Shown here piece by piece: positions 14,052 to 57,454 of a stretch of 64,000 nucleotides of DNA. The translations under genes and the position numbers were made by a program. The stretch comes from an uncultured Thermoanaerobaculia bacterium (GTDB lineage Bacteria > Acidobacteriota > Thermoanaerobaculia > Thermoanaerobaculales > Sulfomarinibacteraceae): the NCBI GenBank assembly GCA_964609835.1, contig CAZSTH010000004.1:3578-67577 (forward strand), given 5' to 3'. The notes beneath the pieces are model-generated. The model saw nothing but the letters and a program-made list of their open reading frames with translations. It ran no database searches and was not told where the DNA came from. Positions within the stretch are counted from its first letter, which is position 1, and each line of letters starts with the position of its first letter.

Positions 14052-15440
14052 GTGAAAACCGAGCTGCGCCGCATTCCCGCGATTCATCGTCTCCTCGAAC
14101 TCCCCGCGGTCCGAGCCGCGGTTGCCGAGCACGGCCGCGCGCCGGTGATGGACGCCTGCCGCGTTGCCGTCGACCGCCTGCGCTCTCGCGTGACCGCCGG
14201 CGAGCTTTCGGCGGGCGATTTCGATGCCGCCGTCGCGGCCCTCCCGGACCGGATCGTCGACGCGGTCCGTGCCGACAGCGAAGGCTCCTACCCAGCGGTG
14301 CTCAATGCGACAGGCGTCCTTCTCCACACCAACCTCGGTCGCGCACCCCTGAGGCGGAGCCTGCCGCCCTCCCTGGAATCATACCTCGCCCTCGAGTTCG
14401 ATGTGGACGAAGGGCGACGCGGCCAGCGCCTGGCTCCGATCGCGGACCGCATCGCCGATGTCTGCGGCGCCGACGCCGCGGTGATGGTCAACAACAACGC
14501 GGCCGCCGTCTTCCTCGCACTCAAGGCGCACGCTGACGGGGGTGAGGTCATCGTCTCCCGCGGCCAGCTGATCGAGATCGGCGGCTCCTTTCGGCTGCCG
14601 GACGTGATGGCGGCCGCCGGCGCGACCTTGGTCGAGGTCGGGTGCACCAATCGCACCCATCTCGACGACTACGAGGCGGCGATCGGCGATCGCACCGCAG
14701 CCATTCTGGTCGCCCACCAGTCGAACTTCCGAATGGTGGGGTTCACGACCGAGCCGCCGCTGCGCGACCTCGCCGGCCTCGCGCACGCCCGCGAGCTGCC
14801 GCTCCTCGTCGACCAGGGTTCGGGTGCACTCCACGACCTGAGGCGCTGGGGACTGCCACCCGAGACCACGGTCAGCGAGCTGCTGGACGCGGGCGCCGAT
14901 GCGGTGATGTTCTCAGGTGACAAGCTCCTCGGCGGCCCCCAAGCGGGGCTGATCGTCGGCTGCGATCGGTGGGTCGCGCCGCTCGGGCGGCACCCGCTCT
15001 ACCGCGCCCTCCGCCCCGACAAGACCGCCCTGGTGATGATGGACGAGACGCTGCGCGCCCACCACGCGGGGCGGCTGTCTGAGATCCCGCTCTATGCCAT
15101 GCTCGAGACCGCCGTGGACACCCTCAAGGGACGCGCACGGCGCCTCGGAAGCCGGCTGCGCGCGGCCGGTGTCCCGGTGCGGGGGCGGGCCACCCGCGCC
15201 GCCCTCGGCGGCGGCACCACGCCCGAGGAGACGGTGGCGAGCTACGGGCTTTCGATCGACGGCGGGCAGCGGCTGTTCGACGCCCTGCGCCGCCAACGGC
15301 CGCCGGTCGTCGCCCGGATCGAGGGCGGCGCGGTGGTGCTCGATCTTCGAACCGTGCCGCCACACCACGACCGGGTGCTCGAGGCCGCGCTGGCCGCGGC
15401 CTACAGGGGGATCGCAGCCAGCACCGATTCCGGAGCGTAG
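14052..15440 (+). CDS. selA: L-seryl-tRNA(Sec) selenium transferase
   Basis: NATGVLLHTNLGRAPL, VNNNAAA, SRGQLIEIGGSFRLPDVM, FSGDKLLGGPQAG (PLP lysine). Confidence 0.97.
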   Translation: MKTELRRIPAIHRLLELPAVRAAVAEHGRAPVMDACRVAVDRLRSRVTAGELSAGDFDAAVAALPDRIVDAVRADSEGSYPAVLNATGVLLHTNLGRAPLRRSLPPSLESYLALEFDVDEGRRGQRLAPIADRIADVCGADAAVMVNNNAAAVFLALKAHADGGEVIVSRGQLIEIGGSFRLPDVMAAAGATLVEVGCTNRTHLDDYEAAIGDRTAAILVAHQSNFRMVGFTTEPPLRDLAGLAHARELPLLVDQGSGALHDLRRWGLPPETTVSELLDAGADAVMFSGDKLLGGPQAGLIVGCDRWVAPLGRHPLYRALRPDKTALVMMDETLRAHHAGRLSEIPLYAMLETAVDTLKGRARRLGSRLRAAGVPVRGRATRAALGGGTTPEETVASYGLSIDGGQRLFDALRRQRPPVVARIEGGAVVLDLRTVPPHHDRVLEAALAAAYRGIAASTDSGA

Positions 15441-16177
15441 AGCCACAGGATCACCGCCAGCGCGAGGAAGGTCCCGAACGGCAGCGCGGTCTTGCTCGAT
15501 CCCCGCCCCGTGACGATCAGCGCGACCCCCACCAGTGCCCCCAGGGTGGCCGCGAGGACCAGCACACCGAGGCAGCCCCGCAGACCGACCACCGAGCCGA
15601 TGGCTGCGAGGTACTTGACGTCACCCCACCCCATACCTTCGATGCCCCGCCACAGGCGGTAGATGACGATCACCAGGATCGGAAGCAACGCTCCCACCGC
15701 AGCACCGACCAGCGAGTCATACCACTCGGTGTAGCCGCCGGCGAGCGAACACCCGAGGCCGAATGCGATCGACGGGTAGGTGAGGGCGTTGGGCAGGATC
15801 TGGAAGTCGAAATCGATCAGGGCGAGGGTGAGCGACACCCACGAGAAGACCACCACCTCGATCCCGGTAACGGAGACCCCCCAGCGCACGAACGCGAGCA
15901 GGCACAGGATCCCCGCAGCCACCTCCACCAGCAGGTAGCGGATCGAGATCGGAGCGCGGCAGCTGCGGCAGCGGCCGCGCAGTGCGAGCCAGGAGACGAT
16001 CGGCAAATTGTCGTACCAGCGAATGAGGCGGCCGCAGGACGGGCACGACGACGGCGGGTCCCGCAGCACCGACATCTCCCTCGGCAGGCGGTAGATGAGG
16101 ACATTCAGGAAGCTGCCCCACACCGCCCCGAAGGCGAAACCGTAGGCCATCACGAGCGGTTCATCCGACCAATCCAT
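15401..16177 (-). CDS. pilD: Type IV prepilin peptidase/N-methyltransferase
   Basis: GSFLNVLIYRLP, SCPSC..CRSC zinc motif, IDFD, GMGWGDVK, PFGTFLA. Confidence 0.95.
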   Translation of the reverse strand: MDWSDEPLVMAYGFAFGAVWGSFLNVLIYRLPREMSVLRDPPSSCPSCGRLIRWYDNLPIVSWLALRGRCRSCRAPISIRYLLVEVAAGILCLLAFVRWGVSVTGIEVVVFSWVSLTLALIDFDFQILPNALTYPSIAFGLGCSLAGGYTEWYDSLVGAAVGALLPILVIVIYRLWRGIEGMGWGDVKYLAAIGSVVGLRGCLGVLVLAATLGALVGVALIVTGRGSSKTALPFGTFLALAVILWLYAPESVLAAIPL

Positions 16178-17328
16178 CGGTACAGCTCCTCCTGCTTTCT
16201 CACCATCTCGTCGCGATCGAAGTCTTCGAGGCTTTCGCGGGCCACGCGTCCATAGCCATCGCGGACGGTCGGATCCTCGAGCAGCGAGCACACACCCTCG
16301 GCCAACGCCGCCACGTCCCCGGCCGGCGCCAGCTCGCCGTTTTCGCCCGGGCGCACCACCTCGACGGTGCCGTCGACGGCGGTGGCCACCACCGGCACCC
16401 CGGCCGCCAGCGACTCCACCACCGAGCACGGCAGGCCCTCGTGGCGGGAAACCAGTACCGACACCGTGGTCGCCGCCAGCACGGCCGCCACGTCGTCGAG
16501 CCAGCCGGCAAAGACCATGCGATCGGCAACGCCCAGCGAGCGCGCCAGCTCCTCGGCCTCCGGCCGCAGCGGACCGTCTCCGACCATCAGGAACCACGCC
16601 TCGGGAAATCGCGCGGCCACGGCCGCGGCCACCCGCACGAAGTCGAGCGGCGCCTTCTGCGGTTTGAAATTCCCGATCTGCGTCACGAGCGGGGCCGCCG
16701 CCGGAATCGAGAGCCGCTCGCGCAGACGGCCGCCGCCGGACGCGGCTCGGAAGCGGGCGAGGTCGATGCCCGCCCGGATGACCGTCGATTTCTCGATCAA
16801 CACGATGCCGAGCTCGGCGGCACGCCGCCGGTCAGCCTCGGACACCATCACGAAGTGGTCGGTCGCCCGTGCCATCAAGCGCTCGACGGCCAGGAAGGCC
16901 CAGCGCACCGGCGGCCTCTGCAACGGCGTGAACCCGAAGCCATGCACGGTGTGGACGACCGCCGGCACCCGCTCCAGTCGGGCCGCCAGGCGGCCAAGAA
17001 TGCCGGCCTTGGAAGAGTGGGTGTGGACCACGTGCGGCGCGAAATCGCGCATCGCCGCCCGCAATCGCCAGAGGACCCGGAGATCGGAGATCGGCGCGAC
17101 CGGGCGCACGAGGCCCGGAACCGGATAGCGCGTGAGGTCCGGGATCGCCTCCGCCTCGCGGTCGAGGAAATCGCCGGGGCCCCATGCCAGCGCGACTGCG
17201 AACCGGGCGCGGTCGAGTTCTGCCGCGGTGTGGAGCACCACCCGCTGCGCGCCCCCGAGCTCGAGCCGGGTGATCGCGAGCAGGACGCGGGTGCGCCCGG
17301 CGGCCTCGGCGGGCGCCGCGTCAACCAT
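16150..17328 (-). CDS. GT4 glycosyltransferase
   Basis: GGAQ, HTHSSKAGILGR, HTVHG, EGLPCSVVE. Confidence 0.92.
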   Translation of the reverse strand: MVDAAPAEAAGRTRVLLAITRLELGGAQRVVLHTAAELDRARFAVALAWGPGDFLDREAEAIPDLTRYPVPGLVRPVAPISDLRVLWRLRAAMRDFAPHVVHTHSSKAGILGRLAARLERVPAVVHTVHGFGFTPLQRPPVRWAFLAVERLMARATDHFVMVSEADRRRAAELGIVLIEKSTVIRAGIDLARFRAASGGGRLRERLSIPAAAPLVTQIGNFKPQKAPLDFVRVAAAVAARFPEAWFLMVGDGPLRPEAEELARSLGVADRMVFAGWLDDVAAVLAATTVSVLVSRHEGLPCSVVESLAAGVPVVATAVDGTVEVVRPGENGELAPAGDVAALAEGVCSLLEDPTVRDGYGRVARESLEDFDRDEMVRKQEELYRWIGRMNRS

Positions 17329-18622
17329 TCTCCAGCGACCCGGCGAGCTGGCGCGCCGCCCGCATGCCGTCGAGGATCGCGTCCTCCATCGCGGAGTACT
17401 TCCACTCCGCCCAGCGCCCGGCGAGCACCACCTCGTGCCCCTTGAGGAAACGCCGCAGCAGCGCCACCGCCTGGCGCCGCGCGTGGTCGAAGACCACGTA
17501 CGCGGGGTCGAGCACGGTCAGGCGGCGGACCCGTACTGCCCGAGGCTCCAGCAGGCCGAGATCGACGAGCGCTCTCTCGGACGCCGCTGCCAGCTCATCG
17601 ACGTCCCCTCCCTCCGGGTCGAGACTGACCTCGATCGACACCGTGTGGTGGCCCTCCGGCGCCAGGCGCCCGTGGTTGGAGGGGAAGCCGACCCGATAGA
17701 AGGGCAGCTCCGGGTCGGGGTAGTAGATCCAGTGCTCGGGGCTCGGTGCGTCGCCTTCGACCCCCAGGGCCAGGTTGAGCACACGCACCCAGCGCAGCGC
17801 CGCGCGCGCGGCCACCACGTCGTCGGGCAGCTCGTCCTCGAGCGAGTCGATGACGGCGGGCAGCGATGTGGTGGCGAGGAGCTTCTCCCACCCCACTCTC
17901 TCTCCATCCGCGAGCTCGAGCCAGCGCTCGCCGAGATGGACCCGCGCAACCTCGCGGCCGAGCTCGAGGCCGCTGATGCGCGCAGCGACCGCATCCGGCA
18001 GCAGCCGGATCCCGCCCTCCCGGGGATAACGGAAGGTGGCGTTGTATCCCACGTCTGCGTCATACAGGCCGAGTGCGCCGTCGACCACATCCTCGAGCTT
18101 CGGCTTCGGCACGTAGCGGCCGACCCAATCGAGGCTGAGCTCGCCGGGGCGCGCGCGATAGAGCTTGGAGTTGTAGGGGAAGAAGAAGTGTCGCGCGAAG
18201 CCGTCGCCGAAGCGCTCCATGACCCAGTCGCGGAAGTCGGCCGGATCGCCGTCCGAGGCCGCGGCCCACGCCCGCACGAAGCCCAGCAGACAGTCCCGCC
18301 GCACCTCCGGCGACAGTCCGTGGGTGTTGATCTGCACGGGGTAGGGCGTGGTGCGGCCGCCGATGGTGATGGCGGCCCGACGCCGGTGGACGGCCAGGCG
18401 CTGCCACGCTCCCAGGTCGGTCAGGTACCCCTCGGTCTCGGGGCGCGCGACGTGGAGGAGGTGGCCGGTATGGTCGAAGGTGAAGCCCTTCGCCTCGAGG
18501 CTACGGCACGCGCCTCCGGCCTCGGCCTCGCGCTCGAAGACCCGCACCGGGACTCCGTCGCGCGCGAGGCGCTCGGCCGCCACCAGGCCCGTCAGCCCGC
18601 CGCCGATGATCACCCGCTCCAT
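17321..18622 (-). CDS. FAD-dependent oxidoreductase (protoporphyrinogen oxidase/UDP-Galp mutase-like, polysaccharide-locus type)
   Basis: IIGGGLTGL, GGACRS, FDHTGHLLH, GRWAEWKY..MEDA. Confidence 0.8.
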   Translation of the reverse strand: MERVIIGGGLTGLVAAERLARDGVPVRVFEREAEAGGACRSLEAKGFTFDHTGHLLHVARPETEGYLTDLGAWQRLAVHRRRAAITIGGRTTPYPVQINTHGLSPEVRRDCLLGFVRAWAAASDGDPADFRDWVMERFGDGFARHFFFPYNSKLYRARPGELSLDWVGRYVPKPKLEDVVDGALGLYDADVGYNATFRYPREGGIRLLPDAVAARISGLELGREVARVHLGERWLELADGERVGWEKLLATTSLPAVIDSLEDELPDDVVAARAALRWVRVLNLALGVEGDAPSPEHWIYYPDPELPFYRVGFPSNHGRLAPEGHHTVSIEVSLDPEGGDVDELAAASERALVDLGLLEPRAVRVRRLTVLDPAYVVFDHARRQAVALLRRFLKGHEVVLAGRWAEWKYSAMEDAILDGMRAARQLAGSLENG

Positions 18623-19623
18623 CAGCCCTCCATGGGAACCAACGCCAGCCAGACCAGCAGGCCGCCGGCCACGAGACCGACCACGCCGGTCAAAATCAGA
18701 GTGGACACCGGGTCCATGTAGAGCACCAGCAGCCCGAGGGCGCCGAAGATGACGGCCACCGCATAGCCGACCACCACCGCCCCCGCCGTCCAACCGTCGA
18801 GGCGGCGGCGGACCCGGAGCGGAAAGTGGTCCGGGCTGCCGTAGTAGATCTTGCGTCCCGCCCGCAGCCTGAGGACGATCACGTAGGCGGTGTCGACGAG
18901 CGGCACCGCCAGGATGTACAGCGGCGCGAGCCAGCCGAGCGGGTTGTGGGTGGTGTAGTCCATCACCATCGCCAGCGCACCGAGGGTGAGGCCGATGAAC
19001 AGGCTGCCGCAGTCGCCGAGGTAGATCTTCGCCGGGTGGAAGTTCGAGCGCAGAAAGCCGAGCAGCGCCCCGATCAGGGCGACCGTGAAGGCCGCGACCA
19101 TCAACCGCCCGTTGAGCAGCGCCACCACCAGCAGGAAGGTCGCCGCGATCACCCCGACGCCGCTCGCGAGCCCGTCCATGATGTCCACCAGGTTGAAGGC
19201 GTTCGACATCCCGACCAGCCACAGCACGGTCACCACCACGCGCACCCACCACGGGATGAAGGCCACCTCGATCATGATGCCGGCCTTGAGCAGCACGAAG
19301 ACCGCCACCGCCTGGCCGACCACCTTCGGCTTCGGCGTCAGCGCGCCGAAGTCATCGATCAGCCCGACCGTGGCGACGATCGTCGAGGCCAGCAGCAGCG
19401 CCAGCAGGTCGGCGTGGAACTCGAAGGTCATGCCGATCGAGAGCAGGAAGGCGGTGAAGACCGCGAGGCCGCCGAGGTAGGCGACCGGCTCGCCGTGGTT
19501 CTTGAGGTTGCCGTCCGGGCGATCGACGACACCGAAGCGCAGCGCCGCCTGGCGCGCCATCGGCGTGCCGACCAGCGCCAGCAGGTAGGCGAGGAAAAAC
19601 CCGAGGATCAGGCGAATCGTCAT
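18622..19623 (-). CDS. WecA/MraY family undecaprenyl-phosphate HexNAc-1-P transferase
   Basis: GLIDD, NAFNLVDIMDGLA, NFHPAKIYLGDCG; polytopic membrane protein. Confidence 0.92.
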   Translation of the reverse strand: MTIRLILGFFLAYLLALVGTPMARQAALRFGVVDRPDGNLKNHGEPVAYLGGLAVFTAFLLSIGMTFEFHADLLALLLASTIVATVGLIDDFGALTPKPKVVGQAVAVFVLLKAGIMIEVAFIPWWVRVVVTVLWLVGMSNAFNLVDIMDGLASGVGVIAATFLLVVALLNGRLMVAAFTVALIGALLGFLRSNFHPAKIYLGDCGSLFIGLTLGALAMVMDYTTHNPLGWLAPLYILAVPLVDTAYVIVLRLRAGRKIYYGSPDHFPLRVRRRLDGWTAGAVVVGYAVAVIFGALGLLVLYMDPVSTLILTGVVGLVAGGLLVWLALVPMEG

Positions 19624-20579
19624 AGGAGCTCGCGCAACCTCCGCTGTTTGAATCGAGACCGCCCCTGCCACTCCGCCCGAACCATCGGCCACCGCCTACG
19701 GAGATGCCCGAGCAGAGACGGCCGGCGCACGACGCCGGCCGACGCCAGGCCCCCGTCCCACACCAAGAGTAGGGGCAGGCGCGGCGCCAGATCAAGCGCG
19801 TGGAGGTGGCGGGCCAGCGTCATCCACCGGTTGCTCAGCACGCACGCCTCCAGCTGGGGCGGGCGCCGCCACCTCAGCGGTCCGCCGCCCGCCTCGGCAC
19901 CGGCACCGCGTCGGTGGGTGGCCACCGCGTCGGGGCAGGTGAAGATCCGCCAGCCCCGGTTGCGCAACCGCCAGCCGATCTCCAGATCCTCCCAGAAGCA
20001 GAAGAAGTGCTCCGCCCACGGGCCGCGGTCGCCGGCGATCTCGGCGAGGGCCGCGGTTCGGAACACGGCGAGGGCGCCGCAGGCCGCGAGCACCGCTCGT
20101 GGCCCGAGGAGGTCGTCCGACACGGGTCGGCCATAGCCGCGGTCGGCCACCTCGAGGGTCAGCGGGTGGAGCACCTGGCCGACGCTGTCGACGGTGTCGC
20201 CGTCCGCACGCATCAGCCGCGGCGCCACCGCCGCCATCTCGTGGTCGTCCGCCAGCATCTGCACTGCGCGGCGCAGGCAGTCCGGGGCCACCACCACGTC
20301 GGGATTGAGGAGGGCGAGCCACGGGTGCTGCCCCGAAATCTCGGCGAAGCCGCGGTTGCAGCCGCCCGCGAAGCCCCGGTTCTCGGGCTCCGCCACCAGA
20401 CGCACCCGCGGATCGTCGAACCCCCGCACCACCTCGCGCGACCGGTCGCCGGAGGCGTTGTCCACCACCGCCACGTCGCCCACACCGTCGGCCGCCAGCA
20501 GTGCCCCGAGACAGGCGGGAAGATCGTCCTGGGAGTTGAAGCTCACCACGACGGCGCCGATGGGGGCCGCCGCCGTCAC
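19620..20579 (-). CDS. GT2 glycosyltransferase
   Basis: VVDNASGD, NRGFAGGCN, LLNPD, FWEDLE; start placed at GTG 20579. Confidence 0.9.
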   Translation of the reverse strand: MTAAAPIGAVVVSFNSQDDLPACLGALLAADGVGDVAVVDNASGDRSREVVRGFDDPRVRLVAEPENRGFAGGCNRGFAEISGQHPWLALLNPDVVVAPDCLRRAVQMLADDHEMAAVAPRLMRADGDTVDSVGQVLHPLTLEVADRGYGRPVSDDLLGPRAVLAACGALAVFRTAALAEIAGDRGPWAEHFFCFWEDLEIGWRLRNRGWRIFTCPDAVATHRRGAGAEAGGGPLRWRRPPQLEACVLSNRWMTLARHLHALDLAPRLPLLLVWDGGLASAGVVRRPSLLGHLRRRWPMVRAEWQGRSRFKQRRLRELL

Positions 20580-20647
20580 GCGGCCAACCCGGCAGCGAGC
20601 AGCCGCACGGATCTCGAGGGGGAGGTGTCCGCCGAGCAATCGAACAT
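20576..20647 (-). CDS. Candidate 23-aa leaderless uORF (MFDCSADTSPSRSVRLLAAGLAA)
   Basis: ATG 6 nt after TATAAT; its stop overlaps the downstream GT2 start (GTGA). Confidence 0.35.
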   Translation of the reverse strand: MFDCSADTSPSRSVRLLAAGLAA

Positions 20648-20653
20648 CATTCA

Positions 20654-20659
20654 ATTATA
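20654..20659 (-). promoter_or_regulatory. Consensus -10 element TATAAT
   Basis: Perfect TATAAT in a GC-rich intergenic gap upstream of the GT2-wecA-pilD run. Confidence 0.65.
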
Positions 20660-26200: not shown

Positions 26201-26384
26201 CGCCCCTCCTCTGACCCGTCACCGCCCGCCGTGGCCACGAGCGATGGAGGGCCTCTCGTCATTGTATCGGCAATACCGGACCGCCGACCCGAGGATGGTA
26301 CGTTTGCGGGACGCCGCGCTCCAGGCGCTGACAGCCTCGAGCAGTGCCAAGCGGCCGTGTTCGGCGGGCGCCAGGCGAACTGTC

Positions 26385-38285: not shown

Positions 38286-38286
38286 C

Positions 38287-49283: not shown

Positions 49284-51271
49284 TCCAGCCTAGCAGGCGT
49301 GGGCGCAGGTCGGCCGCGACGTGATGCGAGGAGCAGCAGCACGAGCAGCAACCCGCAGCCGCTGACCGCTCCCGCGGCCGGCAGGCCGGGGGGGCGGTAG
49401 CGCCCCACCAGCTCGTGACGGCCCGGACCGACCTCGAGGAACTGCAACATCCCCGGCCCGCGCTCCAGCGCCACCTCGACGCCGTCCAGAGACCAGCTCC
49501 AGCCACGCAGCGGGGCCAGAGACACCCACAGCCAGGATCGCTCGTCAAGCTCCAGCGACGCGCGGCAGCGGTTGCCGGCGAGGCCGAGCTCGCCGGCTTC
49601 CGCACCCGCACCGGGGAGACGCCCGACCTGCGGCGTTGCAGCCGCCACCGAGACCACGGCCACCGCTCTCGGGTTGCGGAAAAGTCGCATGCCGCCTCGG
49701 ATCCGGACCGGATCCATCCCCGGGGGCACGCCCGCGGACTCCGGGAGAATCACCCACCGCGCCGCCAGCACATCGAGCCACCACCGCCTGTATGGGCCCT
49801 CGTCGGCGATTCGGAGATGGTCCATCAGCGCGGCGTGCGCCACCGGCGCGTCGGTCCGCACCAGGGTCAGCCCGCCGACCAGGTTGAGGTACCCGACCGG
49901 CCACAGGCGCCGCGGCTCGAGACCGCGCGCCATCCACCGCGTGTCTCCCGCCGCGGGCGACGGAGTCCACACCCGCTCACCGTTCGCCGCCTCGGGCCAG
50001 ACCGTCCGCCGGTCCTCGAGTCGACCCGTCGGCTGCAGGCCCAGCAACGGCCAGGACGCTGCAGCCGTCGCGACGACCCCGGCCGCGAGTGCCACTGCAC
50101 GCAGGTCGCGCCACGCCACGCGCACCGATCCGGCCAGCATCAGCGCCGCCGGGATCCCGGCCACCAGCCATGCCGAGGGGCGCTGGGTGGCGGCACACAG
50201 GAGCAGCGTCGATCCCGCCACCGCGGCTGCCCAGGGTCGCCAGCGTCCCGCCAACCAGTCCCCGGCCCCGCTTCCCATCAGCGGCAGCAACATGGTCAGG
50301 GCGATCACGGCGAATCGCGAGGGGTAACGGACCAGACCGCCGGTGACAGCCAGCACCAGCGATCCCCCACCGACCTCGGGCAGAGTCGCCAGCACCCCGA
50401 GGCAGGCCACCGCGGCGAGCAGCCACCGGTATCGAAAGGCCCCGAACAGACCACATACGAGCAGCGGGGCTCCCAGAAACAGGCTCTCCGCATACACCAT
50501 GCGTCCCGCGTCGACCGCACGACCCGGCACCAGCACTCCCAGCCAGTCACGAGGCGCCACCGCCCCGCGCAGGACCCAGTCCGCGGCCTGCAGTCCACGA
50601 TCGCCTTCCAGCACCCAGAAGACGAACGGCACGAGCTGAACCGCGACCGCGGTGACTCCGACGACGGCGCCGGCCGCCGCGACCGCTCGTCGCCGCCCGG
50701 TCAGCACCATCAGGGCCACCGCCATCGCCCAGATCTGGGGCTCGCCGCCCAGCCACGCGAGCGCGGTGGTGAGGGCCACCAGCCCGACCGCTCGCGGGCC
50801 CTCACCCCGGGCGGCGAGCAACATCCACGGTACCCAGGCCAGGGTCTCGAGGTTGTTGAGCACGCCGACCGTGAACACCACGGGTCCGATGGACCATGCC
50901 GCAGCCTCCACCACCAGCCTCCCGAGGCTCTCGGCGCCAAGGGACCGCGCCAGAAGGCCGGCGCCGAGGGACAGCCAGGCGAGATGGACCGCGACCTCCA
51001 CCGACAGAGCCCACGCCGGCGGCAGCACGAGGTGCAGCCAGGCCGGCGGGTAGAGCACCGCGGTCTCGGGGTTGGCAAACCACGCCTCGCCGCAACCGTT
51101 GGCGAGATTGAGCCACGGCATCGTGCCCGAGGCCAGCGCCGTCGCGGTGAAGTGCCGCATCGGCGCGAAGAAGTCCAGCAGGTCGCGATGGCCCGGCACC
51201 AATTTGAACACCGGAGCGGCGGCCAGCAGCAGGGGCACCCACCACACGCCCGCCAGGGCCTTCCTGTTCAC
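49280..51271 (-). CDS. YfhO-like GT-C fold membrane protein
   Basis: RD..DFFAP, PWLN...CG....ANPE..VLYPP, many TM segments, C-terminal GW...LDG..GRHEL...YRP; GTGA overlaps at both ends. Confidence 0.75.
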   Translation of the reverse strand: MNRKALAGVWWVPLLLAAAPVFKLVPGHRDLLDFFAPMRHFTATALASGTMPWLNLANGCGEAWFANPETAVLYPPAWLHLVLPPAWALSVEVAVHLAWLSLGAGLLARSLGAESLGRLVVEAAAWSIGPVVFTVGVLNNLETLAWVPWMLLAARGEGPRAVGLVALTTALAWLGGEPQIWAMAVALMVLTGRRRAVAAAGAVVGVTAVAVQLVPFVFWVLEGDRGLQAADWVLRGAVAPRDWLGVLVPGRAVDAGRMVYAESLFLGAPLLVCGLFGAFRYRWLLAAVACLGVLATLPEVGGGSLVLAVTGGLVRYPSRFAVIALTMLLPLMGSGAGDWLAGRWRPWAAAVAGSTLLLCAATQRPSAWLVAGIPAALMLAGSVRVAWRDLRAVALAAGVVATAAASWPLLGLQPTGRLEDRRTVWPEAANGERVWTPSPAAGDTRWMARGLEPRRLWPVGYLNLVGGLTLVRTDAPVAHAALMDHLRIADEGPYRRWWLDVLAARWVILPESAGVPPGMDPVRIRGGMRLFRNPRAVAVVSVAAATPQVGRLPGAGAEAGELGLAGNRCRASLELDERSWLWVSLAPLRGWSWSLDGVEVALERGPGMLQFLEVGPGRHELVGRYRPPGLPAAGAVSGCGLLLVLLLLASRRGRPAPTPARLE

Positions 51272-53070
51272 TGCAGCGCCTCTTCGAGCTCGCGAAACTG
51301 CCATGGCGGTGCCGCCAGCAGCTCGCGCTCGTAGGGGGTCAGGCCCAGCCTCGAACGCAGCGCTGCTGACCCGCTCGCCTTCGCGAGGGCGTCGCGCGCA
51401 CTCGCCACCTGCCCGCGGTCGAGCTCGACGCGGGCCAGGAACAACCACGCCGACACCGCGTGGGGCTCGGCCTCGACCGCCCGCCGGACCAGCGCCGCGG
51501 CCCCGTCGAGATTCGCGACGGCCCGTTCCAGCCGCGCCGCCTCCAGCCACGGCCACGGCTGGTGGGGCTCGAGACGGGTCGCGTGCTCGAAAGCGGCCCG
51601 CGCCCCCGCGACGCTGTCCGGCCACGGCCCGAACTCGTTCACGATGCGGAGGTGCACGGCGCCCAGCGTCATCCACACGTCCGCCGCGCCGGGGTGGACG
51701 CGGGCGGCACGCCGGCTGCGGGCCAGGGCTTCAGCGGCTGCCTCCCAGGTCCACGCCGGTTCGCGAAGCAGCGAGCGGGCGCGCCACTCCAGCGGCGGCG
51801 AGAACCACCCTTCCGCGGCCTCGAGCCGGTTCACCAATCGAGCATCCCGCGGCCCCGCATGCCACAGCCACCGTGCCGACGCCGGGCCCGCCATGCCCCA
51901 CAGCACGATCAGCGCGAGAGCCAGAGCCCGGCATGCCCGACGCCACCAGGGGACCACTTCCGATCGGACAATCCCTGCGCCGGCCTCGAGCAGGCCCAGA
52001 GTCAGGGCCCACCACCACAGAACGACATCGAGGTTGACGACATCGTGAAACAGGGCCATCAACGCCATCGCCGCCGCCGCCGCCCACAGAGCCCGGTTTC
52101 CCCAGCGCTCGCGACCACGCAGGCGCCGCACCCACAGCGCGACGGCCACTACCGCGATCGCGAGGCCGACGACCCCCGTCTGCACCAGCAGCCCGAGCGG
52201 GGTCGACTCGGCAGAGCCGATCAGATACTGGCGCTGACCGATGTGGTCCTCGTGCAGCAGACGGACCGCGCCCGCCGCATCGGGCAGGCCACCGGGGCCA
52301 ACTCCGAACAGCGGCCGGGCTGCCCACAGCCTGAGCACGCCGAGCCAGATCGATGGCCGAAACCAGTCCAGGACCGCGGGATGGATGACCAGGCGCCACG
52401 CCAACAGCGCCGCCGCCGCCGCGCCGCCGACCGCGATGCCGGCGGCCCGAAGCCGGCCGCTCGGCAGCAGGACCGCGATCGCCGCCACCACCGCGAGCAG
52501 ACCCGCCCGGGAACCCGTGATCGCGACGCCGAAAATCAGTACCGAGGAAACTCCGATCCGCCATCCGAACCCGAGGCCCGACGGCAGGGCGAAGCTCAGC
52601 GCCAGCGCGGCCACCAGCAGCGCCGCCGTGAGATTGGGGTTTTCCAGCAGCCCGCCGACCCGGATCCCACCGAAGCCGACCGCCTCCAGCGCGAGCCCGA
52701 CGACCAGCAGCACCGCTGCGGCGATGATGATACTCGCCGCCAGCTCGCGGGCGCGCCGCGTCGACCGCCGGGCGCTCACCCACACACACCATGCGATCAC
52801 CCAGCCCGCGAGGGTGATCCGTGCGTCGAGAGGCGCCAGCCCGACCACAGCCGACGACACCACCCCCCAACCGATGAACGCAAGCCACGCCCCCTCCTCG
52901 GGCCCGGAGCCGAGGCGCTTCGTACCGATGCCGAGGACCACCACCCACACCGTCAGTGCGATGGCGACCGCCAGCCGCTGACCGGGGTAGAAGGCGCCGC
53001 CCATCACCGCCGCCGCAGCCACCACCGCCGCGGCTGCCACCACCGGCACTGCCAGGCTAACGCGGCCCAT
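51268..53070 (-). CDS. O-antigen ligase/O-oligosaccharyltransferase family (Wzy_C) protein with C-terminal TPRs
   Basis: NPN, TGSRAG, R..IW, PLFGVGPG, AES..L.LL..TG..G, FH; TPR-like C-terminus. Confidence 0.82.
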   Translation of the reverse strand: MGRVSLAVPVVAAAAVVAAAAVMGGAFYPGQRLAVAIALTVWVVVLGIGTKRLGSGPEEGAWLAFIGWGVVSSAVVGLAPLDARITLAGWVIAWCVWVSARRSTRRARELAASIIIAAAVLLVVGLALEAVGFGGIRVGGLLENPNLTAALLVAALALSFALPSGLGFGWRIGVSSVLIFGVAITGSRAGLLAVVAAIAVLLPSGRLRAAGIAVGGAAAAALLAWRLVIHPAVLDWFRPSIWLGVLRLWAARPLFGVGPGGLPDAAGAVRLLHEDHIGQRQYLIGSAESTPLGLLVQTGVVGLAIAVVAVALWVRRLRGRERWGNRALWAAAAAMALMALFHDVVNLDVVLWWWALTLGLLEAGAGIVRSEVVPWWRRACRALALALIVLWGMAGPASARWLWHAGPRDARLVNRLEAAEGWFSPPLEWRARSLLREPAWTWEAAAEALARSRRAARVHPGAADVWMTLGAVHLRIVNEFGPWPDSVAGARAAFEHATRLEPHQPWPWLEAARLERAVANLDGAAALVRRAVEAEPHAVSAWLFLARVELDRGQVASARDALAKASGSAALRSRLGLTPYERELLAAPPWQFRELEEALQ

Positions 53071-54667
53071 GCAGCCGGCCGAGCAGACGTTCGTAACGTT
53101 GACGGTAGACCGGGTTCGACGGGTTGGCGCGAGCCGCTTCCCACGCCTCGCTCAGAGCCCGTGGAGCATCACCCTCGGCCTCCGCGAGCAGGCCGCGCAG
53201 GTCCGCGATCGAGGCCGCACGGGGCTTCAGCCATCGGATTTCATCGAGAGCAACGGCCGCCGCCGCGATGCGGTCGAGATCCCCCGAATCCAGCGCCGCG
53301 ACCGCCATCGCCGTCGCCGGCCCCACCCGCCACGGCGCCACCCGCGCGGCCCTGCTGGCCAGTTCGAATCGGTCTCCGGCAGGGAGGTCCGAGACGGCGG
53401 GCGGATCGAGGCTTCGCGAGGCCGCGTGCAGACAGGAGACCGCCAGAGTCGCCACCGCCGCCGCGATGAGCAACGGACGACCGCGTCGCACCGGGGGATC
53501 GCGGACCTCCGAACGCCGGCACGCCACCGCCCACCCGGCCAGCACCGCCCACGGCACCGCCACGCCGGATCCGTAGAGCGAGAAGTCGACGAGGTTGTGG
53601 GCCGGAATCACCGCCACCGCCACCGCCAGGTCGGGCCGCAACGGCCACAGGTCGCGGACCAGCCCCGAAAGCCAGATGGCGATGGCCAGCGCGGCCGCCA
53701 ATCCCACGGGGCCGAGCTCCGCGAGCCACTCCAACGGCAGGGAATGGGCGTGGCGCGGGCGGTTGCCAACCTCGAAGGGAACAGCCTGTGCGGCCTGCCC
53801 GAAGCCGCCGAACCCGATGCCGGCCGCCGGCGCGGTGGACCAGATCCACACCGCCGATCGCCAGTTGTCGAGACGCAGGCCGACCGGCTCGAGCTCCCGC
53901 ACGTCGCCGCGCACGACAATCACGATCGCGAGCGCCGCCGCCAGGGCGACCGCCAGCGGCAGGGCCGCCCGGCGGTGGCGGGCCGCGGCCAGAGCGGCCG
54001 CGGCCGCCAGGGCGAGACCGAGACCGACCGGGGACCGGGTCGCCGCGAGCCCGGCCACGCACAGCAGCGCACCGCCTCCCCACAGCACCGCGGCGCGGTC
54101 GCGGCGAACCCGGGCCAGGAGCAGCGGCAGCCCGGTCGCAAGCAGGACCGCGAGGTGGGACGGCAGCGGCTGCGAGGCGAAGGCCCGGCCCGCGGCCAGA
54201 CGCTCGGCGGCATCGGAGCGGAACTGCTCCGGGACCTGCTGCAGGACGGCCGCGTGGTGCTCGGGGCCGGCGGTGACCTGGAGGAGCCCCCACACGGCGA
54301 GGCCCGCGACCACCAGGCCGAAAACGGCTCCGGCGGGCTCCGGCGGCGCCTGTCGCGAAGCCAGCCAGACGACCGCGGCGACCGCCACCAGCAGCGTCCC
54401 CTCGGTGAGGGCAGCTGACGGATCGTAGCCGAGCAGCCCGTGCGGGATGACCAGCAGGGCTGCGGACAGGGCGAGCCAGGCCGCCGCGGCGCCGGCGGCC
54501 ACGCGCCGCCGGTCACCCAGGAGGACCGCCAGCGCGACGGCCGAGGCGATCGGAAAGGACCAGGGATGGGTCTCGGCCGGGGACCACGCGAGCAGCGCGG
54601 CCATCGCCAGCGGCGCGAACCCCCTGATCCCGCGACCACCAGCCCGGTCTTCCGGCACTTCAACCAC
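53057..54667 (-). CDS. Second O-antigen ligase/O-oligosaccharyltransferase family (Wzy_C) protein
   Basis: R..NW, GIGFGGF, HAHSLPLEWLAELG..G, HNLVDF. Confidence 0.85.
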   Translation of the reverse strand: MVEVPEDRAGGRGIRGFAPLAMAALLAWSPAETHPWSFPIASAVALAVLLGDRRRVAAGAAAAWLALSAALLVIPHGLLGYDPSAALTEGTLLVAVAAVVWLASRQAPPEPAGAVFGLVVAGLAVWGLLQVTAGPEHHAAVLQQVPEQFRSDAAERLAAGRAFASQPLPSHLAVLLATGLPLLLARVRRDRAAVLWGGGALLCVAGLAATRSPVGLGLALAAAAALAAARHRRAALPLAVALAAALAIVIVVRGDVRELEPVGLRLDNWRSAVWIWSTAPAAGIGFGGFGQAAQAVPFEVGNRPRHAHSLPLEWLAELGPVGLAAALAIAIWLSGLVRDLWPLRPDLAVAVAVIPAHNLVDFSLYGSGVAVPWAVLAGWAVACRRSEVRDPPVRRGRPLLIAAAVATLAVSCLHAASRSLDPPAVSDLPAGDRFELASRAARVAPWRVGPATAMAVAALDSGDLDRIAAAAVALDEIRWLKPRAASIADLRGLLAEAEGDAPRALSEAWEAARANPSNPVYRQRYERLLGRLHGPR

Positions 54668-54737
54668 GATGATCCAGCCTCTCTCGAGTGTCTCACGACC
54701 GCCTCGGGGCGCCGTCTGCCGGTGTCAGGCGGGCACG

Positions 54738-54761
54738 AAAAAAGGGGGCGCAGGGGCCCCC
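54738..54761 (-). terminator. Intrinsic terminator of the pilin gene
   Basis: GGGGGC-ccctgc-GCCCCC followed by T6 on the minus strand, 24 nt after the pilin stop. Confidence 0.85.
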
Positions 54762-54785
54762 GATTTCGAATTCGCGGCAGAACGA

Positions 54786-55253
54786 CTACTCGGTCTGCAC
54801 GCCCTCGGGGTACTGGATGAACGATCCATTGGAGAAGACGATGTCGCAGTCCATGTCGCCCGTGAGGGTGCCGATACTGTAGCTGTCGAGGTTACCCTCA
54901 AAGGTCTTGTTCTTCCCGGCCGATCCGATCGAGTAGAACTGCGGATTCGACGAGGCGTGGAAGGCCGTCCGCCAGCCGTCGGCCTGCGGAGCGGACTTGA
55001 TGTAGGTCGGCTGCAAATAATCATTGAACTCAGCCGAGACTGGTTGGTCTGCACTGACGCTAGGATACTGCGACGCATCCACCGCATAGGCCTCGGTGGC
55101 GGTGCCCACGGTCCGAAGGTCGGCCATGGAGCGCTTCTGACGGCCACGGTTGATGGCGTTCAGAAGGTTGGGGATGGCGATAGCGGCAATAATGCCGATG
55201 ATCGCCACCACGATCAGCAGCTCGATCAACGTAAATCCACGATTCTTTCGCAT
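54786..55253 (-). CDS. Type IV pilin (class III signal peptide, GspG-like C-terminal motifs); probable major pilin
   Basis: MRKNRG/FTLIELLIVVAIIGIIAAIAIPN; DGW...SAG motif; AAGGAGG SD; own promoter and terminator. Confidence 0.92.
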   Translation of the reverse strand: MRKNRGFTLIELLIVVAIIGIIAAIAIPNLLNAINRGRQKRSMADLRTVGTATEAYAVDASQYPSVSADQPVSAEFNDYLQPTYIKSAPQADGWRTAFHASSNPQFYSIGSAGKNKTFEGNLDSYSIGTLTGDMDCDIVFSNGSFIQYPEGVQTE

Positions 55254-55285: not shown

Positions 55286-55301
55286 TGCAAGGCCCGTGCC
55301 A
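55286..55301 (-). promoter_or_regulatory. Sigma54 (-24/-12) promoter
   Basis: TGGCAC-GGGCC-TTGCA, an exact consensus match, 32 nt upstream of the pilin ATG. Confidence 0.88.
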
Positions 55302-55331
55302 GCCATTTCCGGCACCGAGAGACATGGAAAG

Positions 55332-55346
55332 TGACGCTCTACGTCA
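55332..55346. promoter_or_regulatory. TGACG-N5-CGTCA palindrome (candidate regulator site)
   Basis: Perfect dyad 30 nt upstream of the sigma54 box. Confidence 0.4.
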
Positions 55347-55430: not shown

Positions 55431-56657
55431 TCATGGCTTCCACTCCGGGCCCGAGCCGCGCCAACGGTGCTCGGGCGCCCACACGCCCGGCCACGGCTGC
55501 TCCGCCGTCACCCGCACCGTCGCGGCATCGCACCAGTAGTCGTAGGCCTGTCCGCCGGTCGCGTGCACCGCGACGTCGATCAAATACTCGCCGGGCGCGA
55601 GCGCGCAGGCCGGATACTCGCACCACACTTCGCCGTCGGCAGCCAGCAGGACGGGCTCGAGCCCGGCCATCAGGGTGTTGTGGCCCGCCACCTTGGCGCC
55701 GTCCGAGGTGTGCCACGCGATTCCGAACACGAAGTCCCGGACCGGACGCCGCACTCGGTAGCGGATGCGGACCTGGCACGGGCTGCCGTTCGGGATCAGG
55801 CGCTGCGGGTGGTCGCCCACCCACACCTCGGCGGCGATGATCTCGACGTCGCCATTGCCCCAACGGCGGCCGTCGTCGTCGCGGGTCTCGTCGGTATCAA
55901 GACCGGTTTCGGACTCCCCGGCGGCATCACTGCGGTAGCGCGCCACCACGGCATCGCTGGGGCCCTCGGCCGCCACCCGTCCCCGCTCGAGGTACAGCGC
56001 ACGGTCCGCGAAGCCGGCCACCAGGTCGAGGTCGTGCGACACCAGGACCATCGTCACACCGCGCTGGCGGAGGCGTGCCAGGCGGTCGAGGCAGCGGCGC
56101 GTGAAGGACTCGTCGCCGACTGCCAGCACCTCGTCGATCAACAAGATGTCGGGGTCGGCGGCGACCGCCACCGCGAACCCGAGACGCACGTACATCCCGG
56201 ACGAGTAGACCTTCACCGGCTGGTCGATGAACTCGCCGATGCCGGCGAAGGCGACGATCTCGTCCATCCGCGCCTCGATCTCGCGCCGCGTCAGCCCGAG
56301 CAGCATGCCGTTGATGAGCACGTTCTCGCGGCCCGTGATTTCGGGATGGAACCCCGCCCCGAGCTCGATCAGCGCCGTCACCCTTCCGTCCGTCTCCACT
56401 GTGCCCTCGGTCGGCTTGAGGATGCCGCCCGCGAGCTTGAGAAAGGTGGACTTTCCGGATCCGTTGGGCCCGATCAGGGCCACCGCCTCACCCGCGGCGA
56501 CGGTCACGTCGATGCCGCACAGCGCACGATGCGTGCGCTCCCGATCCCCCTTCTTCCGGCGGTGGAAAAGGGCCCCCTTGAGGGTTTCATGGCGGACCCT
56601 CCGGCCGCGCCACCGGTAGACCTTGTGTACGCCGCGAAACCGGATTTCTCCCCTCAC
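55431..56657 (-). CDS. wzt: Second polysaccharide ABC exporter ATPase with C-terminal domain
   Basis: GPNGSGKST, GFHPEITGREN, YSSGMYVRLGF, RWGNG-type C-terminal domain. Confidence 0.92.
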   Translation of the reverse strand: MRGEIRFRGVHKVYRWRGRRVRHETLKGALFHRRKKGDRERTHRALCGIDVTVAAGEAVALIGPNGSGKSTFLKLAGGILKPTEGTVETDGRVTALIELGAGFHPEITGRENVLINGMLLGLTRREIEARMDEIVAFAGIGEFIDQPVKVYSSGMYVRLGFAVAVAADPDILLIDEVLAVGDESFTRRCLDRLARLRQRGVTMVLVSHDLDLVAGFADRALYLERGRVAAEGPSDAVVARYRSDAAGESETGLDTDETRDDDGRRWGNGDVEIIAAEVWVGDHPQRLIPNGSPCQVRIRYRVRRPVRDFVFGIAWHTSDGAKVAGHNTLMAGLEPVLLAADGEVWCEYPACALAPGEYLIDVAVHATGGQAYDYWCDAATVRVTAEQPWPGVWAPEHRWRGSGPEWKP

Positions 56658-57454
56658 ACCGCCTCCACGAGGGTTTCGCGGTAGCGCTCGAAGACCAGCG
56701 CGCCGATCCACCAGCTTGCGGCGCCGACGGCGTAGGCGGTCACCCACACCGCCGGTGGCGATGGCGAACCGGTAAACACGGTGTCGCGGTACACCGCAAC
56801 CAGGCTCGCCAAAGGGTTGAGGCGGAGCACGCGTTCGAGGGTTCCAGGAACCTCGAGCCCCTCCAGCTTGTAGATGATGGGGGACGAGAAGAACAGCAGG
56901 TTGAGGAGGTGCCCCAGGAGGTCGCGAAGATCCCGGTAGTGGACCGCCAGCACCGACACCGCCATCACGACTCCGCCGGTGGCCAGGATCCACGGCAGGA
57001 GGGCGGCCGGCAGCAGCCACACCGACCACGGGAAGTCGTGCAGGCCTGCGGCCGTTCCGACCACCATGGCAGCGATCAGGATCGGCAGCGCGAGAACGTG
57101 GTGGACGAGATGGGATGCCACCGTGACCGCTGGGAAAACCTCCGGCGGGCACATCACCTTGGCCAGCAACGGGCCGTTGTCGATCAGCGTGATCGAGCCG
57201 TCGAGCACCGCACCCGAGAAGAACAGCCACGGCAGGAGACCGCTGAAGAGGAACAAGGGGTAGGGGTCGGCACCGGGGAAACGCGGGCTGAAGATGTAGG
57301 TGAAGACGACCGCGTAGACGGCCAGCAGCAGGAGGGGGTTCAGCAACGACCAGAAGAAACCGAGGACCGACGCCCGGTAGCGCGCGTCGAGTTCACGCCG
57401 GACCAGCACCGCCACCAGCGCTCGCTGGCGCCACAGCAGGCGGAGGGCTGCCAT
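56654..57454 (-). CDS. wzm: Second polysaccharide ABC exporter permease
   Basis: RELDARYRASVLGFFWSLLNPL, SPIIY, LNP. Confidence 0.92.
   Translation of the reverse strand: MAALRLLWRQRALVAVLVRRELDARYRASVLGFFWSLLNPLLLLAVYAVVFTYIFSPRFPGADPYPLFLFSGLLPWLFFSGAVLDGSITLIDNGPLLAKVMCPPEVFPAVTVASHLVHHVLALPILIAAMVVGTAAGLHDFPWSVWLLPAALLPWILATGGVVMAVSVLAVHYRDLRDLLGHLLNLLFFSSPIIYKLEGLEVPGTLERVLRLNPLASLVAVYRDTVFTGSPSPPAVWVTAYAVGAASWWIGALVFERYRETLVEAV

Follow-up and report, generated by a model that had tools for sequence, protein, structure and literature searches.

Most of what is known about pilin glycosylation comes from a few Proteobacteria, in which it reportedly changes surface properties and susceptibility to phages; the enzymes involved serve in the production of glycoconjugates. 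Here, a locus was analysed in a 64-kb stretch of DNA (the window; ~70% GC, i.e. guanine plus cytosine) on contig CAZSTH010000004.1 of an uncultured Thermoanaerobaculia bacterium, in which ~38 kb of genes for glycan assembly, export and attachment separate a type IV pilin gene from the gene of the prepilin peptidase PilD. The locus, at 15401-57454, is predicted to constitute an ATP-binding cassette (ABC) transporter-dependent glycan system in which the glycan is linked to undecaprenyl diphosphate (Und-PP), with the pilin as its most likely acceptor; we assign a probability of about 0.5 to this being a pilin glycosylation locus. With similarly balanced odds, an ancestral three-gene pilin cassette was expanded in the order Thermoanaerobaculales to a complete ABC-dependent glycan pathway.

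Among the closest described systems, TfpO, TfpM, PglS and TfpW are each encoded beside their pilin (PMC12645811; bioRxiv 10.1101/2020.04.19.049825). TfpO and TfpM, enzymes of 420-470 amino acids (aa), modify a C-terminal Ser/Thr of the pilin, and the His that is required in Wzy_C enzymes, as a His is in all known O-oligosaccharyltransferases (O-OTases), lies in an AH(S/N)xxLE motif (PMC9829042). The PglL/PglS type is recognised by PglL_A and Wzy_C_2 together with Wzy_C (PMC12645811). TfpW, which acts on the group IV pilins of Pseudomonas aeruginosa, is a GT-C-type pilin arabinosyltransferase encoded 3' of pilA, and in some species sugar-precursor genes cluster with pilA-tfpW (bioRxiv 10.1101/2020.04.19.049825). 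Furthermore, the GT-C enzymes YfhO, PgtC2 and PgfM of Firmicutes use undecaprenyl phosphate (Und-P)-sugars outside the cytoplasm to modify teichoic acids or protein regions rich in Ser/Thr (PMC12041528). The slg clusters of Geobacillus stearothermophilus and Paenibacillus alvei encode Wzm/Wzt, a Wzy_C OTase (WsaB/WsfB) and an AsnB homologue, and a TPR is described for PglL and WsfB, in the slg case within the enzyme or in a neighbour (PMC2943079). ABC-exported O-glycosylation by a Wzy_C enzyme is thus known for Gram-positive S-layers (PMC2943079), and therefore the principle of the present locus is not new, only its setting.

The initial annotation of the window had implied a Geobacter/Myxococcus-like lineage, which was wrong: the relatives belong to Thermoanaerobaculales, Acidobacteriota. 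The closest relatives of the SpdSyn-like protein described below are encoded by a 'Candidatus Sulfomarinibacteraceae' metagenome-assembled genome (MAG; 77% identity) and a Thermoanaerobaculales MAG (76%), and among its relatives Thermoanaerobaculaceae, including Thermoanaerobaculum, represents the sister family. In Myxococcus xanthus (pilA-pilGHI-pilD), the major pilin gene and pilD have an ABC-2 type transporter encoded next to them or in between, and we know of no glycosyltransferase island or Wzy_C genes in that pilA-pilD region. The source assembly comprises 4.0 Mb in 186 contigs and is 97% complete. Genes were picked by GC at codon positions and families named by Pfam and NCBIfam, while AlphaFold2 (AF2) models of the two proteins named WzyC1 and memX were compared with the PDB by Foldseek, memX also by the ESM Atlas. 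All gene classes that had been annotated at 15401-57454 were recovered by Pfam and NCBIfam, including the Wzm/Wzt pair upstream of the pilin. The ends of the locus required correction: at low coordinates it closes with PilD, and the upstream Wzm begins at 57454. All of 15401-57454 is oriented on the minus strand, except for a few genes of a central island. The features outside this island are, from high to low coordinate:

56654-57454, minus strand: Wzm-type ABC-2 permease of the upstream pair (ABC2_membrane, E=3.9e-13).
55431-56660, minus strand: ABC ATPase of the Wzt type, ending in a carbohydrate-binding Wzt_C domain (ABC_tran 74.5 bits; Wzt_C 75.2 against 30.4).
55287-55301, minus strand: sigma54 -24/-12 element TGGCACGGGCCTTGC, a perfect match to TGGCAC-N5-TTGC, 34 nt before the pilin ATG.
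54786-55253, minus strand: type IV prepilin, 155 aa (N_methyl PF07963, 40.9 against 21.2).
54737-54762, minus strand: intrinsic-terminator-like GC hairpin with a T run 3' of the pilin, read from the sequence.
53057-54667, minus strand: WzyC1, a WaaL-fold Wzy_C ligase/oligosaccharyltransferase-like protein of 536 aa (Wzy_C 33.6 against 31.7), start codon uncertain.
51268-53070, minus strand: WzyC2, a Wzy_C-like but divergent membrane protein that also carries a TPR domain (Wzy_C 25.1, below 31.7; TPR_19 32.4).
49280-51277, minus strand: memX, a membrane glycosyltransferase of YfhO-like GT-C fold, 665 aa (assigned by fold; no Pfam or NCBIfam match of its own).
46872-49283, minus strand: SpdSyn, a fusion of a polytopic membrane part (major facilitator superfamily, MFS) with a spermidine-synthase-like part (NF037959, 114.6 against a cut-off of 40; Spermine_synth 71.6 bits).
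19620-20654, minus strand: conserved soluble family 2 glycosyltransferase (GT2), candidate adaptor glycosyltransferase (Glycos_transf_2 72.1 bits; ortholog beside WecA in loci of family f2).
18622-19692, minus strand: WecA/MraY-family polyprenyl-phosphate N-acetylhexosamine (HexNAc)-1-phosphate transferase, the initiator (Glycos_transf_4 114.3 bits).
17321-18640, minus strand: FAD/NAD-binding flavoprotein of amine-oxidase fold (Amino_oxidase 76.2 and NAD_binding_8 54 bits).
16150-17328, minus strand: conserved family 4 glycosyltransferase, GT4 (Glyco_trans_1_4 112.9 and Glycos_transf_1 106.9 bits).
15401-16150, minus strand: PilD, prepilin peptidase/N-methyltransferase (A24_N_bact 114 and Peptidase_A24 62 bits).

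The pilin possesses the leader MRKNRG and the mature N-terminus FTLIE (MRKNRG followed by FTLIELLIVVAIIG, read directly from the sequence), and hence the G(-1), F(+1), E(+5) and hydrophobic alpha1-N helix of type IV pilins, and it is the top N_methyl match genome-wide. An identity as GspG was rejected, as the GspG model TIGR01710 scores 61 bits against a cut-off of 88.85 and GspD/E/F on contig C7 have a GspG-like gene of their own alongside, in a second set of T2SSF, T2SSE and secretin genes that makes up a separate type II secretion system. Assembly genes for type IV pili were located elsewhere in the genome (T2SSE and T2SSF on C30, PilM_2 and Secretin on C58), as were further pilin-like genes, i.e. 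three minor-pilin-like genes on C133 and a 39%-identical paralogue on C34. Judged by this context, the window pilin is a candidate major pilin of a type IVa pilus. Across 26 orthologs the N-terminal 45 residues are near-invariant and two loops are hypervariable, both of which contain Ser/Thr and are flanked by invariant segments, the first loop coming after a conserved YP motif. In several MAGs (L028, L030, L073, L035/L068) the frame of the primary pilin is conserved over the N-terminal half and then interrupted or shifted, which could be an assembly error across the hypervariable region or real pilin variation.

The sigma54 element was confirmed, as was the annotation of the pilin as sigma54-driven, and it is the sole such site in the window even when one mismatch is allowed; GGCAC-N5-TTGC recurs 41-53 nt 5' of the pilin ATG in 22 of the 26 loci, and the remaining four have near-misses. 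In the 26 loci compared, the pilin is likewise followed by a hairpin and T run, and element and terminator together predict that the pilin forms a strong, separate transcription unit. Additionally, an inverted repeat was noted at ~55330-55345, ~40 nt 5' of the sigma54 element, and at the equivalent place in the 26 loci (TGACG-N5/6-CGTCA in the sister family, ACG-N6-CGTCAC in the genus of the source organism), which is a candidate binding site for an enhancer-binding activator. Outside the order, a PAS/HisKA/HATPase sensor kinase is encoded 3' of PilD (L154, 13690-15528; L157, 13796-16321) and is possibly the PilS of the sigma54 pilin circuit; in the window no such kinase follows PilD.

As in the TfpO/PilO, TfpM and PglS systems of Pseudomonas, Acinetobacter and Moraxella, the gene directly 3' of the pilin encodes a Wzy_C enzyme with the His residue, and a HexNAc-primed Und-PP glycan would suit such enzymes as a donor (PMC9829042, PMC12645811). 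Residues R253, D255, R265, N268, W269, H308, H357, N358 and D361 of WzyC1 are invariant in 26 orthologs, H308 (26/26) lying in the AH(S/N)xxLE motif, and WzyC1 thus unites the Wzy_C domain (IPR007016) and the conserved catalytic His of O-OTases. In contrast to these systems, the window pilin has no C-terminal Ser/Thr and WzyC1 is a protein of 536 aa with a TPR-like tail rather than one of 420-470 aa, lacking PglL_A and Wzy_C_2; furthermore, it is accompanied by a His-less paralogue, a GT-C and the genes of an entire biosynthesis and export pathway, in a lineage of Acidobacteriota. Of the kinship with TfpO/PilO and PglL that had been proposed, the adjacency to the pilin and the Wzy_C His therefore stand, while the C-terminal acceptor and the PglL_A/Wzy_C_2 domains do not, and the absence of a C-terminal Ser/Thr means that the system is not of the TfpO/TfpM type.

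The AF2 model of WzyC1 (pLDDT 86.8) has WaaL as its best PDB match (7tpg_B, E=2.9e-4, TMt 0.58), and its last ~100 residues match TPR folds; a sequence search of the PDB returned nothing for WzyC1 and TPR matches only for WzyC2. The model contains 13 helices of membrane-spanning length, four of them after the catalytic loop, by which the TPR-like tail is predicted to be periplasmic. The combination of WaaL fold and Wzy_C domain raises the explanation that the locus serves the O-antigen of lipopolysaccharide (LPS), in which case WecA, the glycosyltransferases and Wzm/Wzt would make the O-polysaccharide (O-PS), WzyC1 would be the WaaL ligase, and the pilin and pilD would be unrelated flanks. No other WaaL could be assigned in the genome by linkage to heptosyltransferase genes, where the PF01075 matches on C30 and C64 adjoin no Wzy_C gene and the one strong match (C30) is near none; the window itself contains no core-LPS genes. 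However, five other Wzy_C proteins in the genome all score higher for the family, one of which, at 413 aa, has the usual WaaL size, and WzyC1 deviates from WaaL (~400 aa, 12 transmembrane (TM) helices, no extra soluble domain) by an extra TM helix and the TPR-like tail, neither of which is in the matched WaaL chain (403 residues), although a protein with these features and without core-LPS neighbours may still act as a ligase. In addition, WzyC1 lies inside a pilin-PilD cassette and occurs in a single order, while LPS would be expected in all of the phylum Acidobacteriota. On balance, we consider the O-antigen explanation, the main rival of pilin glycosylation, unlikely. One of the five other Wzy_C proteins (C52:16603-18336, 577 aa) is a third with a C-terminal TPR and has the canonical His, while the remaining four are encoded on C88, C119, C29 and C25. 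A heptosyltransferase-family gene (Glyco_transf_9, C30:30244-30921) was also found directly beside a PilB-like ATPase gene.

WzyC2 aligns to WzyC1 over the catalytic loop with AES opposite AHS, Glu replacing the catalytic His, and A287-E288-S289 is invariant in 10/10 orthologs. The annotation of two Wzy_C ligase/OTase genes hence holds for the first, which is above threshold and has the His, and not for the second, which is below threshold and has Glu instead; because only WzyC1 is canonical and WzyC2 is a His-less paralogue, 'two OTases' is an overstatement. The lost His of WzyC2 and the failure of memX to reach the Pfam YfhO threshold would suit a view of the YfhO-like and Wzy_C/TPR proteins as non-transferase accessories of pilus assembly or pilin stability, next to which the glycan genes would be an unrelated insertion, and some pilin accessory proteins are indeed said to be non-enzymatic. 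Nevertheless, WzyC1 retains all invariant Wzy_C residues, the acidic motif that follows TM1 in memX is invariant and its GT-C fold confident, and the insertion is stable across two families, which makes such a role very improbable.

memX gave no match to YfhO (PF09586) at E<=0.01, while its ortholog in L045 scored 25.3 against 28.5 and PF09586 is carried by 13 among the 120 memX orthologs listed. Its AF2 model (pLDDT 88.5) matches AftD 6w98 (E=5e-5), ArnT 5ezm, STT3, AglB, AftA and PglB in Foldseek, its ESM Atlas neighbours are YfhO clusters (score 0.99), and a PDB sequence search returned nothing meaningful. An invariant Asp occurs within a conserved RDLxDFFxPxR segment after TM1, in what is predicted to be the first extracytoplasmic loop, and with its polytopic fold memX thereby shows both hallmarks of a GT-C. 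Its designation as a YfhO-like GT-C is accordingly borne out by the fold, by the language-model neighbours and by Pfam matches in relatives. With TfpW it shares being a ~650-aa GT-C membrane enzyme encoded by the major pilin; it differs in being near YfhO and not Emb/TfpW, in a C-terminal domain that is beta-rich with a final TM helix rather than a TPR, and in its position, as TfpW is encoded directly 3' of pilA whereas in the window two genes lie between memX and the pilin (the two are adjacent in other families of the class). No D-arabinofuranose genes were recognised in the locus, and the cassette is one of pilin, GT-C and PilD. From YfhO, PgtC2 and PgfM, with which it shares the GT-C fold, the case differs by its diderm acidobacterial host, by the lack of a Pfam YfhO match in memX and by the lack of a GtrB/CsbB-like GT2 in the locus: no GT2 with C-terminal TM helices was found there, and the conserved GT2 at 19620-20654, tried as a GtrB/CsbB-like Und-P-sugar synthase for the GT-C, was rejected on account of having none.

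SpdSyn, which passes the NF037959 cut-off and so upholds the membrane spermidine-synthase-like gene of the initial annotation, has ~12 hydrophobic segments and conserved GFGSGGT and DSIHP motifs. Its relatives were found by an alignment-based scan, a single-sequence query having returned none. In distant Thermoanaerobaculia, SpdSyn-like paralogues (38-43% identity) are paired with a divergent memX-like gene with no pilin near (L098, L099, L105, L108, L111, L114, L118, L123 and L126), and GT-C and SpdSyn together may constitute a module of their own. Such pilin-free pairs would fit a general periplasmic or surface glycosylation system acting on many envelope proteins, or on an S-layer-like protein, capsule or exopolysaccharide, with the pilin at most one substrate and with the YfhO-like GT-C and the SpdSyn-like enzyme decorating the other polymer. 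Likewise, PglL-type enzymes are general and modify pilins too (PMC12645811), YfhO enzymes act on teichoic acids and on many membrane proteins (PMC12041528), and in genus g3 the module is detached from the pilin. Conversely, PglL_A and Wzy_C_2 are absent, the pilin adjoins the module in most loci, the YfhO-like gene lies between pilin and PilD class-wide, and the locus contains no other conserved candidate acceptor gene; a general system, or one that decorates another polymer, is regarded as quite unlikely.

Gene order was compared across the order, where 35 of 41 relatives have a WzyC1 match. The pilin lies directly 5' of WzyC1 in 17/19 fetched loci, with WzyC2 and memX next, and in a second set (80 kept loci) it precedes WzyC1 in 16 of the 19 that have at least 4 kb upstream, the two sets of 19 overlapping; the full downstream block to PilD is present in 15 of the 80-locus set. 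Seven of 12 sister-family loci hold SpdSyn, three glycosyltransferases, GT2, WecA, flavoprotein, GT4 and PilD within ~17 kb, and the compact form of the locus is present in Thermoanaerobaculum (MAGs L071, L072 and L077), while in the genus of the source organism PilD lies 21-44 kb 3' of WzyC1 on the same strand in 10/10 genomes with both on one contig. The pilin-to-PilD interval is 12-44 kb in the order, and PilD is single-copy in 25/25 genus genomes. Upstream Wzm orthologs of the own-genus loci are 76-80% identical and precede the pilin in 7/7, and the upstream Wzt precedes the pilin(s) in most fetched loci. Conversely, island content differs among members of the genus, and since the order of PilD and WzyC1 is fixed while the content between them differs, the locus reads as a variable island between conserved brackets. 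The core order thus recurs in relatives across the order, as a check of gene-order conservation had called for, and because of this recurrence and of the sigma54 element in 22/26 loci the arrangement is more than chance. The enzyme adjoins its presumed substrate, as is the rule for pilin-specific O-OTases, with genus g3 and L059 as exceptions. A loss of WzyC1 together with the pilin in the no-match genomes was considered and rejected; the pilin lies at a contig edge in G029, G040 and G011 and the locus of G028 is split over contigs, with a WzyC1 fragment at a contig end, and the absences are therefore assembly effects.

Beyond the order, an even draw of 121 genomes of the class was used. Full-length WzyC1 is confined to the order (14/14 in family f1 and 13/14 in f2, one of the 13 being a contig-end fragment), with four weak partial matches in the 92 other class genomes, and this restriction fits a lineage-specific pilin accessory. 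The pilin family was detected in 121/121 and PilD in 118/121. In 22 genomes from outside the order (families f5, f6, f8, f9 and f16), PilD follows the pilin(s) on the same strand at a distance of 2.4-4.3 kb, a count obtained by comparing listed coordinates by eye, with the unpublished G044 and G127, which enter the pilin and PilD tallies, left out; pilin rows of f13 were not among the 150 listed. A memX-like gene stands between pilin(s) and PilD in 6/8 fetched loci outside the order, and the two such middle genes that were tested encode YfhO-family proteins of 732-735 aa (34.5 and 37.5 against 28.5). Because this compact cassette recurs in the class outside the order, the ancestral state was likely pilin, YfhO-like GT-C and PilD. 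In Thermoanaerobaculales, the gap between pilin and GT-C then likely took up WzyC1 and WzyC2, and that between GT-C and PilD took up the SpdSyn-like gene, the island of variable content and the block with WecA; Wzm/Wzt lie upstream.

The island itself (20698-46778) has a GC content of 0.55-0.68 compared to 0.70-0.73 in its flanks, and includes about ten GT2/GT4/GT61 genes. Genes assigned in it are as follows (those without a score being named by Pfam):

45731-46576, in the island: RfbF (426.7 against 300).
44619-45770, in the island: RfbG (458 against 278).
43261-44622, in the island: RfbH (699.5 against 423).
42346-43257, in the island: short-chain dehydrogenase/reductase.
38287-40239, in the island: AsnB-like amidotransferase.
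37386-38315, in the island: GT2.
35034-37192, in the island: second Wzm/Wzt pair, Wzm2 (36314-37192) and Wzt2 (35034-36299).
33959-34951, in the island: FkbM methyltransferase.

As RfbF, RfbG and RfbH all exceed their NCBIfam cut-offs, the island is indicated to encode a CDP-3,6-dideoxyhexose route, although no gene was assigned to its last reductase or epimerase. By family prediction, the locus contains what defines ABC-dependent O-PS biosynthesis, i.e. a polyprenyl-phosphate HexNAc-1-phosphate transferase, a Wzm/Wzt pair and a Wzt carbohydrate-binding domain. The WecA-like protein scores 93.1 with the ECA_wecA model, below 326, and its orthologs in f2 loci are 48-62% identical. The flavoprotein is of the PRK07208 type, below cut-off, and its position between WecA and GT4 is conserved; GT4 orthologs (50-55% identical) lie directly before PilD. 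This classic toolkit (Wzt_C, FkbM methyltransferase, RfbF/G/H), on a strain-variable, lower-GC island with conserved flanks, further favours the O-antigen explanation, as do the unrelated neighbours that are syntenic too and the ability of the four-gene module to sit apart from the pilin. What speaks against it here is that genes were inserted on both sides of the pilin-linked YfhO-like gene, within a cassette that is compact elsewhere in the class. In all, the likeness to WaaL and ABC-dependent O-PS loci comprises the fold, Wzy_C, WecA priming, the Wzt carbohydrate-binding domain and an island between conserved flanks. With the slg clusters the locus would have in common an ABC-dependent lipid-linked glycan, a methylation cap, Wzy_C transfer, an AsnB homologue and a target-protein gene beside the cluster (PMC2943079), and the TPR noted in those systems has a counterpart in the WzyC1 tail; the slg clusters differ in their monoderm Firmicutes hosts, their S-layer protein target and their WbaP-like rather than WecA-like initiator, and have no GT-C or SpdSyn-like partner, pilin or PilD.

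If the pilin is the acceptor, the following pathway can be proposed, each step of which is inferred from family membership. WecA would load HexNAc-1-phosphate onto undecaprenyl phosphate, and the conserved GT2 and GT4 together with the strain-variable island enzymes would lengthen the chain in the cytoplasm, where the FkbM methyltransferase may cap it. Wzm/Wzt would export the Und-PP-linked glycan, recognised by Wzt through its carbohydrate-binding domain, and WzyC1 would move it en bloc to Ser/Thr residues of the hypervariable surface loops of the neighbouring pilin, with the His-less WzyC2 and its large TPR domain possibly acting as a partner or adaptor of WzyC1. The YfhO-like GT-C and the SpdSyn-like protein could make further periplasmic modifications; alternatively, the GT-C might glycosylate the pilin directly from an Und-P-sugar. 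PilD would process the pilin, which would then be assembled by PilB/C/T and PilM-Q machinery encoded elsewhere. Evidence for the pilin as acceptor, which carries it to about even odds, is that the glycan genes are nested in a pilus cassette, that the GT-C lies by the pilin class-wide and that both Wzy_C proteins have TPR-like arms. The initial annotation had claimed a complete Und-PP-linked, ABC-exported pilin O-glycosylation system: its parts and their adjacency were found, and the pilin is its putative acceptor.

Several observations weigh against glycosylation of the pilin. Lipid A-core ligases have Wzy_C and the WaaL fold as well, and neither trait discriminates between the two activities (PMC12645811). 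Profile searches detected neither PglL_A (PF15864) nor Wzy_C_2 (PF11846) at E<=1 in any of the seven Wzy_C-type proteins of the genome, i.e. WzyC1, WzyC2 and the five others. The lower-GC, hypervariable, ABC-dependent island with 3,6-dideoxyhexose genes looks exactly like an LPS O-antigen locus. No position-conserved Ser/Thr was found in the variable pilin loops, and C-terminal Ser/Thr occurs in 0/26 pilins, the last residue being E, D, N, G or Q. As the pilin is present in 121/121 class genomes and WzyC1 only in the order, the pilin does not need WzyC1, and family f4 (28 genomes) keeps its listed pilins and PilD apart. In genus g3, the WzyC1-WzyC2-memX-SpdSyn module has no neighbouring pilin, WecA or PilD; it is flanked by a peptidase/xanthine-dehydrogenase pair and a histidine kinase/AspRS/GlgB run, respectively, and the pilin stays with a PBP-Wzm-Wzt group and two memX-like genes. 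Similarly, L059 has the module and the WecA block with neither pilin nor PilD beside them, and a SpdSyn ortholog was found in just 3/25 genus genomes. Finally, unrelated neighbours (a periplasmic binding protein, a tetrapyrrole methylase and SelA) are equally syntenic, and conserved order alone is therefore weak proof of function.

A bolder reading, which we consider rather improbable, would make the YfhO GT-Cs dedicated pilin glycosyltransferases class-wide (pilA-yfhO-pilD), to which a captured O-antigen-like ABC pathway would have been added, along with a two-subunit ligase of catalytic WzyC1 and His-less WzyC2 whose periplasmic TPR arms grip the pilin and a membrane aminopropyltransferase-like enzyme adding a polyamine-type group to the pilus glycan, resulting in strain-variable, sugar-sheathed pili in a sediment lineage that is uncultured.

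With respect to novelty, ABC-exported protein O-glycosylation by Wzy_C enzymes and pilin-adjacent OTases or GT-Cs are already known, and new are the lineage, the pairing of an active with a His-less Wzy_C/TPR protein alongside a YfhO-like GT-C and an MFS-SpeE fusion, and the class-wide pilin-YfhO-like-PilD cassette with its stepwise expansion. In the open-access literature searched (without supplements), no paper was found on pilin glycosylation in Acidobacteria; nor did open-access searches return a paper on the combination of spermidine synthase, O-antigen ligase, pilin and glycosyltransferase, or, among the papers listed, anything on this locus under Thermoanaerobaculia pili, Sulfomarinibacter type IV, or YfhO with pilin. 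Should the pilin be the acceptor, pilin glycosylation would extend to Acidobacteriota, an ABC-exported polysaccharide would be placed on the pilus in a diderm, and a YfhO-type GT-C would become a pilin accessory; the order and class would offer natural stages in the growth of the pilin-PilD interval, from a single gene to over 30, as well as new transferases of the Wzy_C/TPR kind whose rules for donor and acceptor possibly differ. Should it be an O-antigen locus, the finding would be an ordinary one, save for its curious nesting in a pilus cassette.

Some minor features of the window were also noted. The island GT2 at 26193-27281 (plus strand) is split by an in-frame TAG (26709-26711), beyond which GT2-like sequence continues, and is likely a pseudogene or an assembly error. 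The region 28800-30450 (GC ~0.55) holds short open reading frames (ORFs) only and no recognisable genes, and was possibly left behind in the island by foreign or mobile DNA; the ORFs at 27882-28973 and 30457-31125 have no Pfam match, the former none in NCBIfam either. No tRNA genes were found in the window. Upstream of the locus, a large protein with TPR and SLT lytic transglycosylase domains is encoded at 60261-62753 (minus strand). At the other end, SelA (selenocysteine synthase, 384.7 bits; 14052-15440, plus strand) is convergent to PilD, a junction shared with L050, and the source organism is probably a selenocysteine user.

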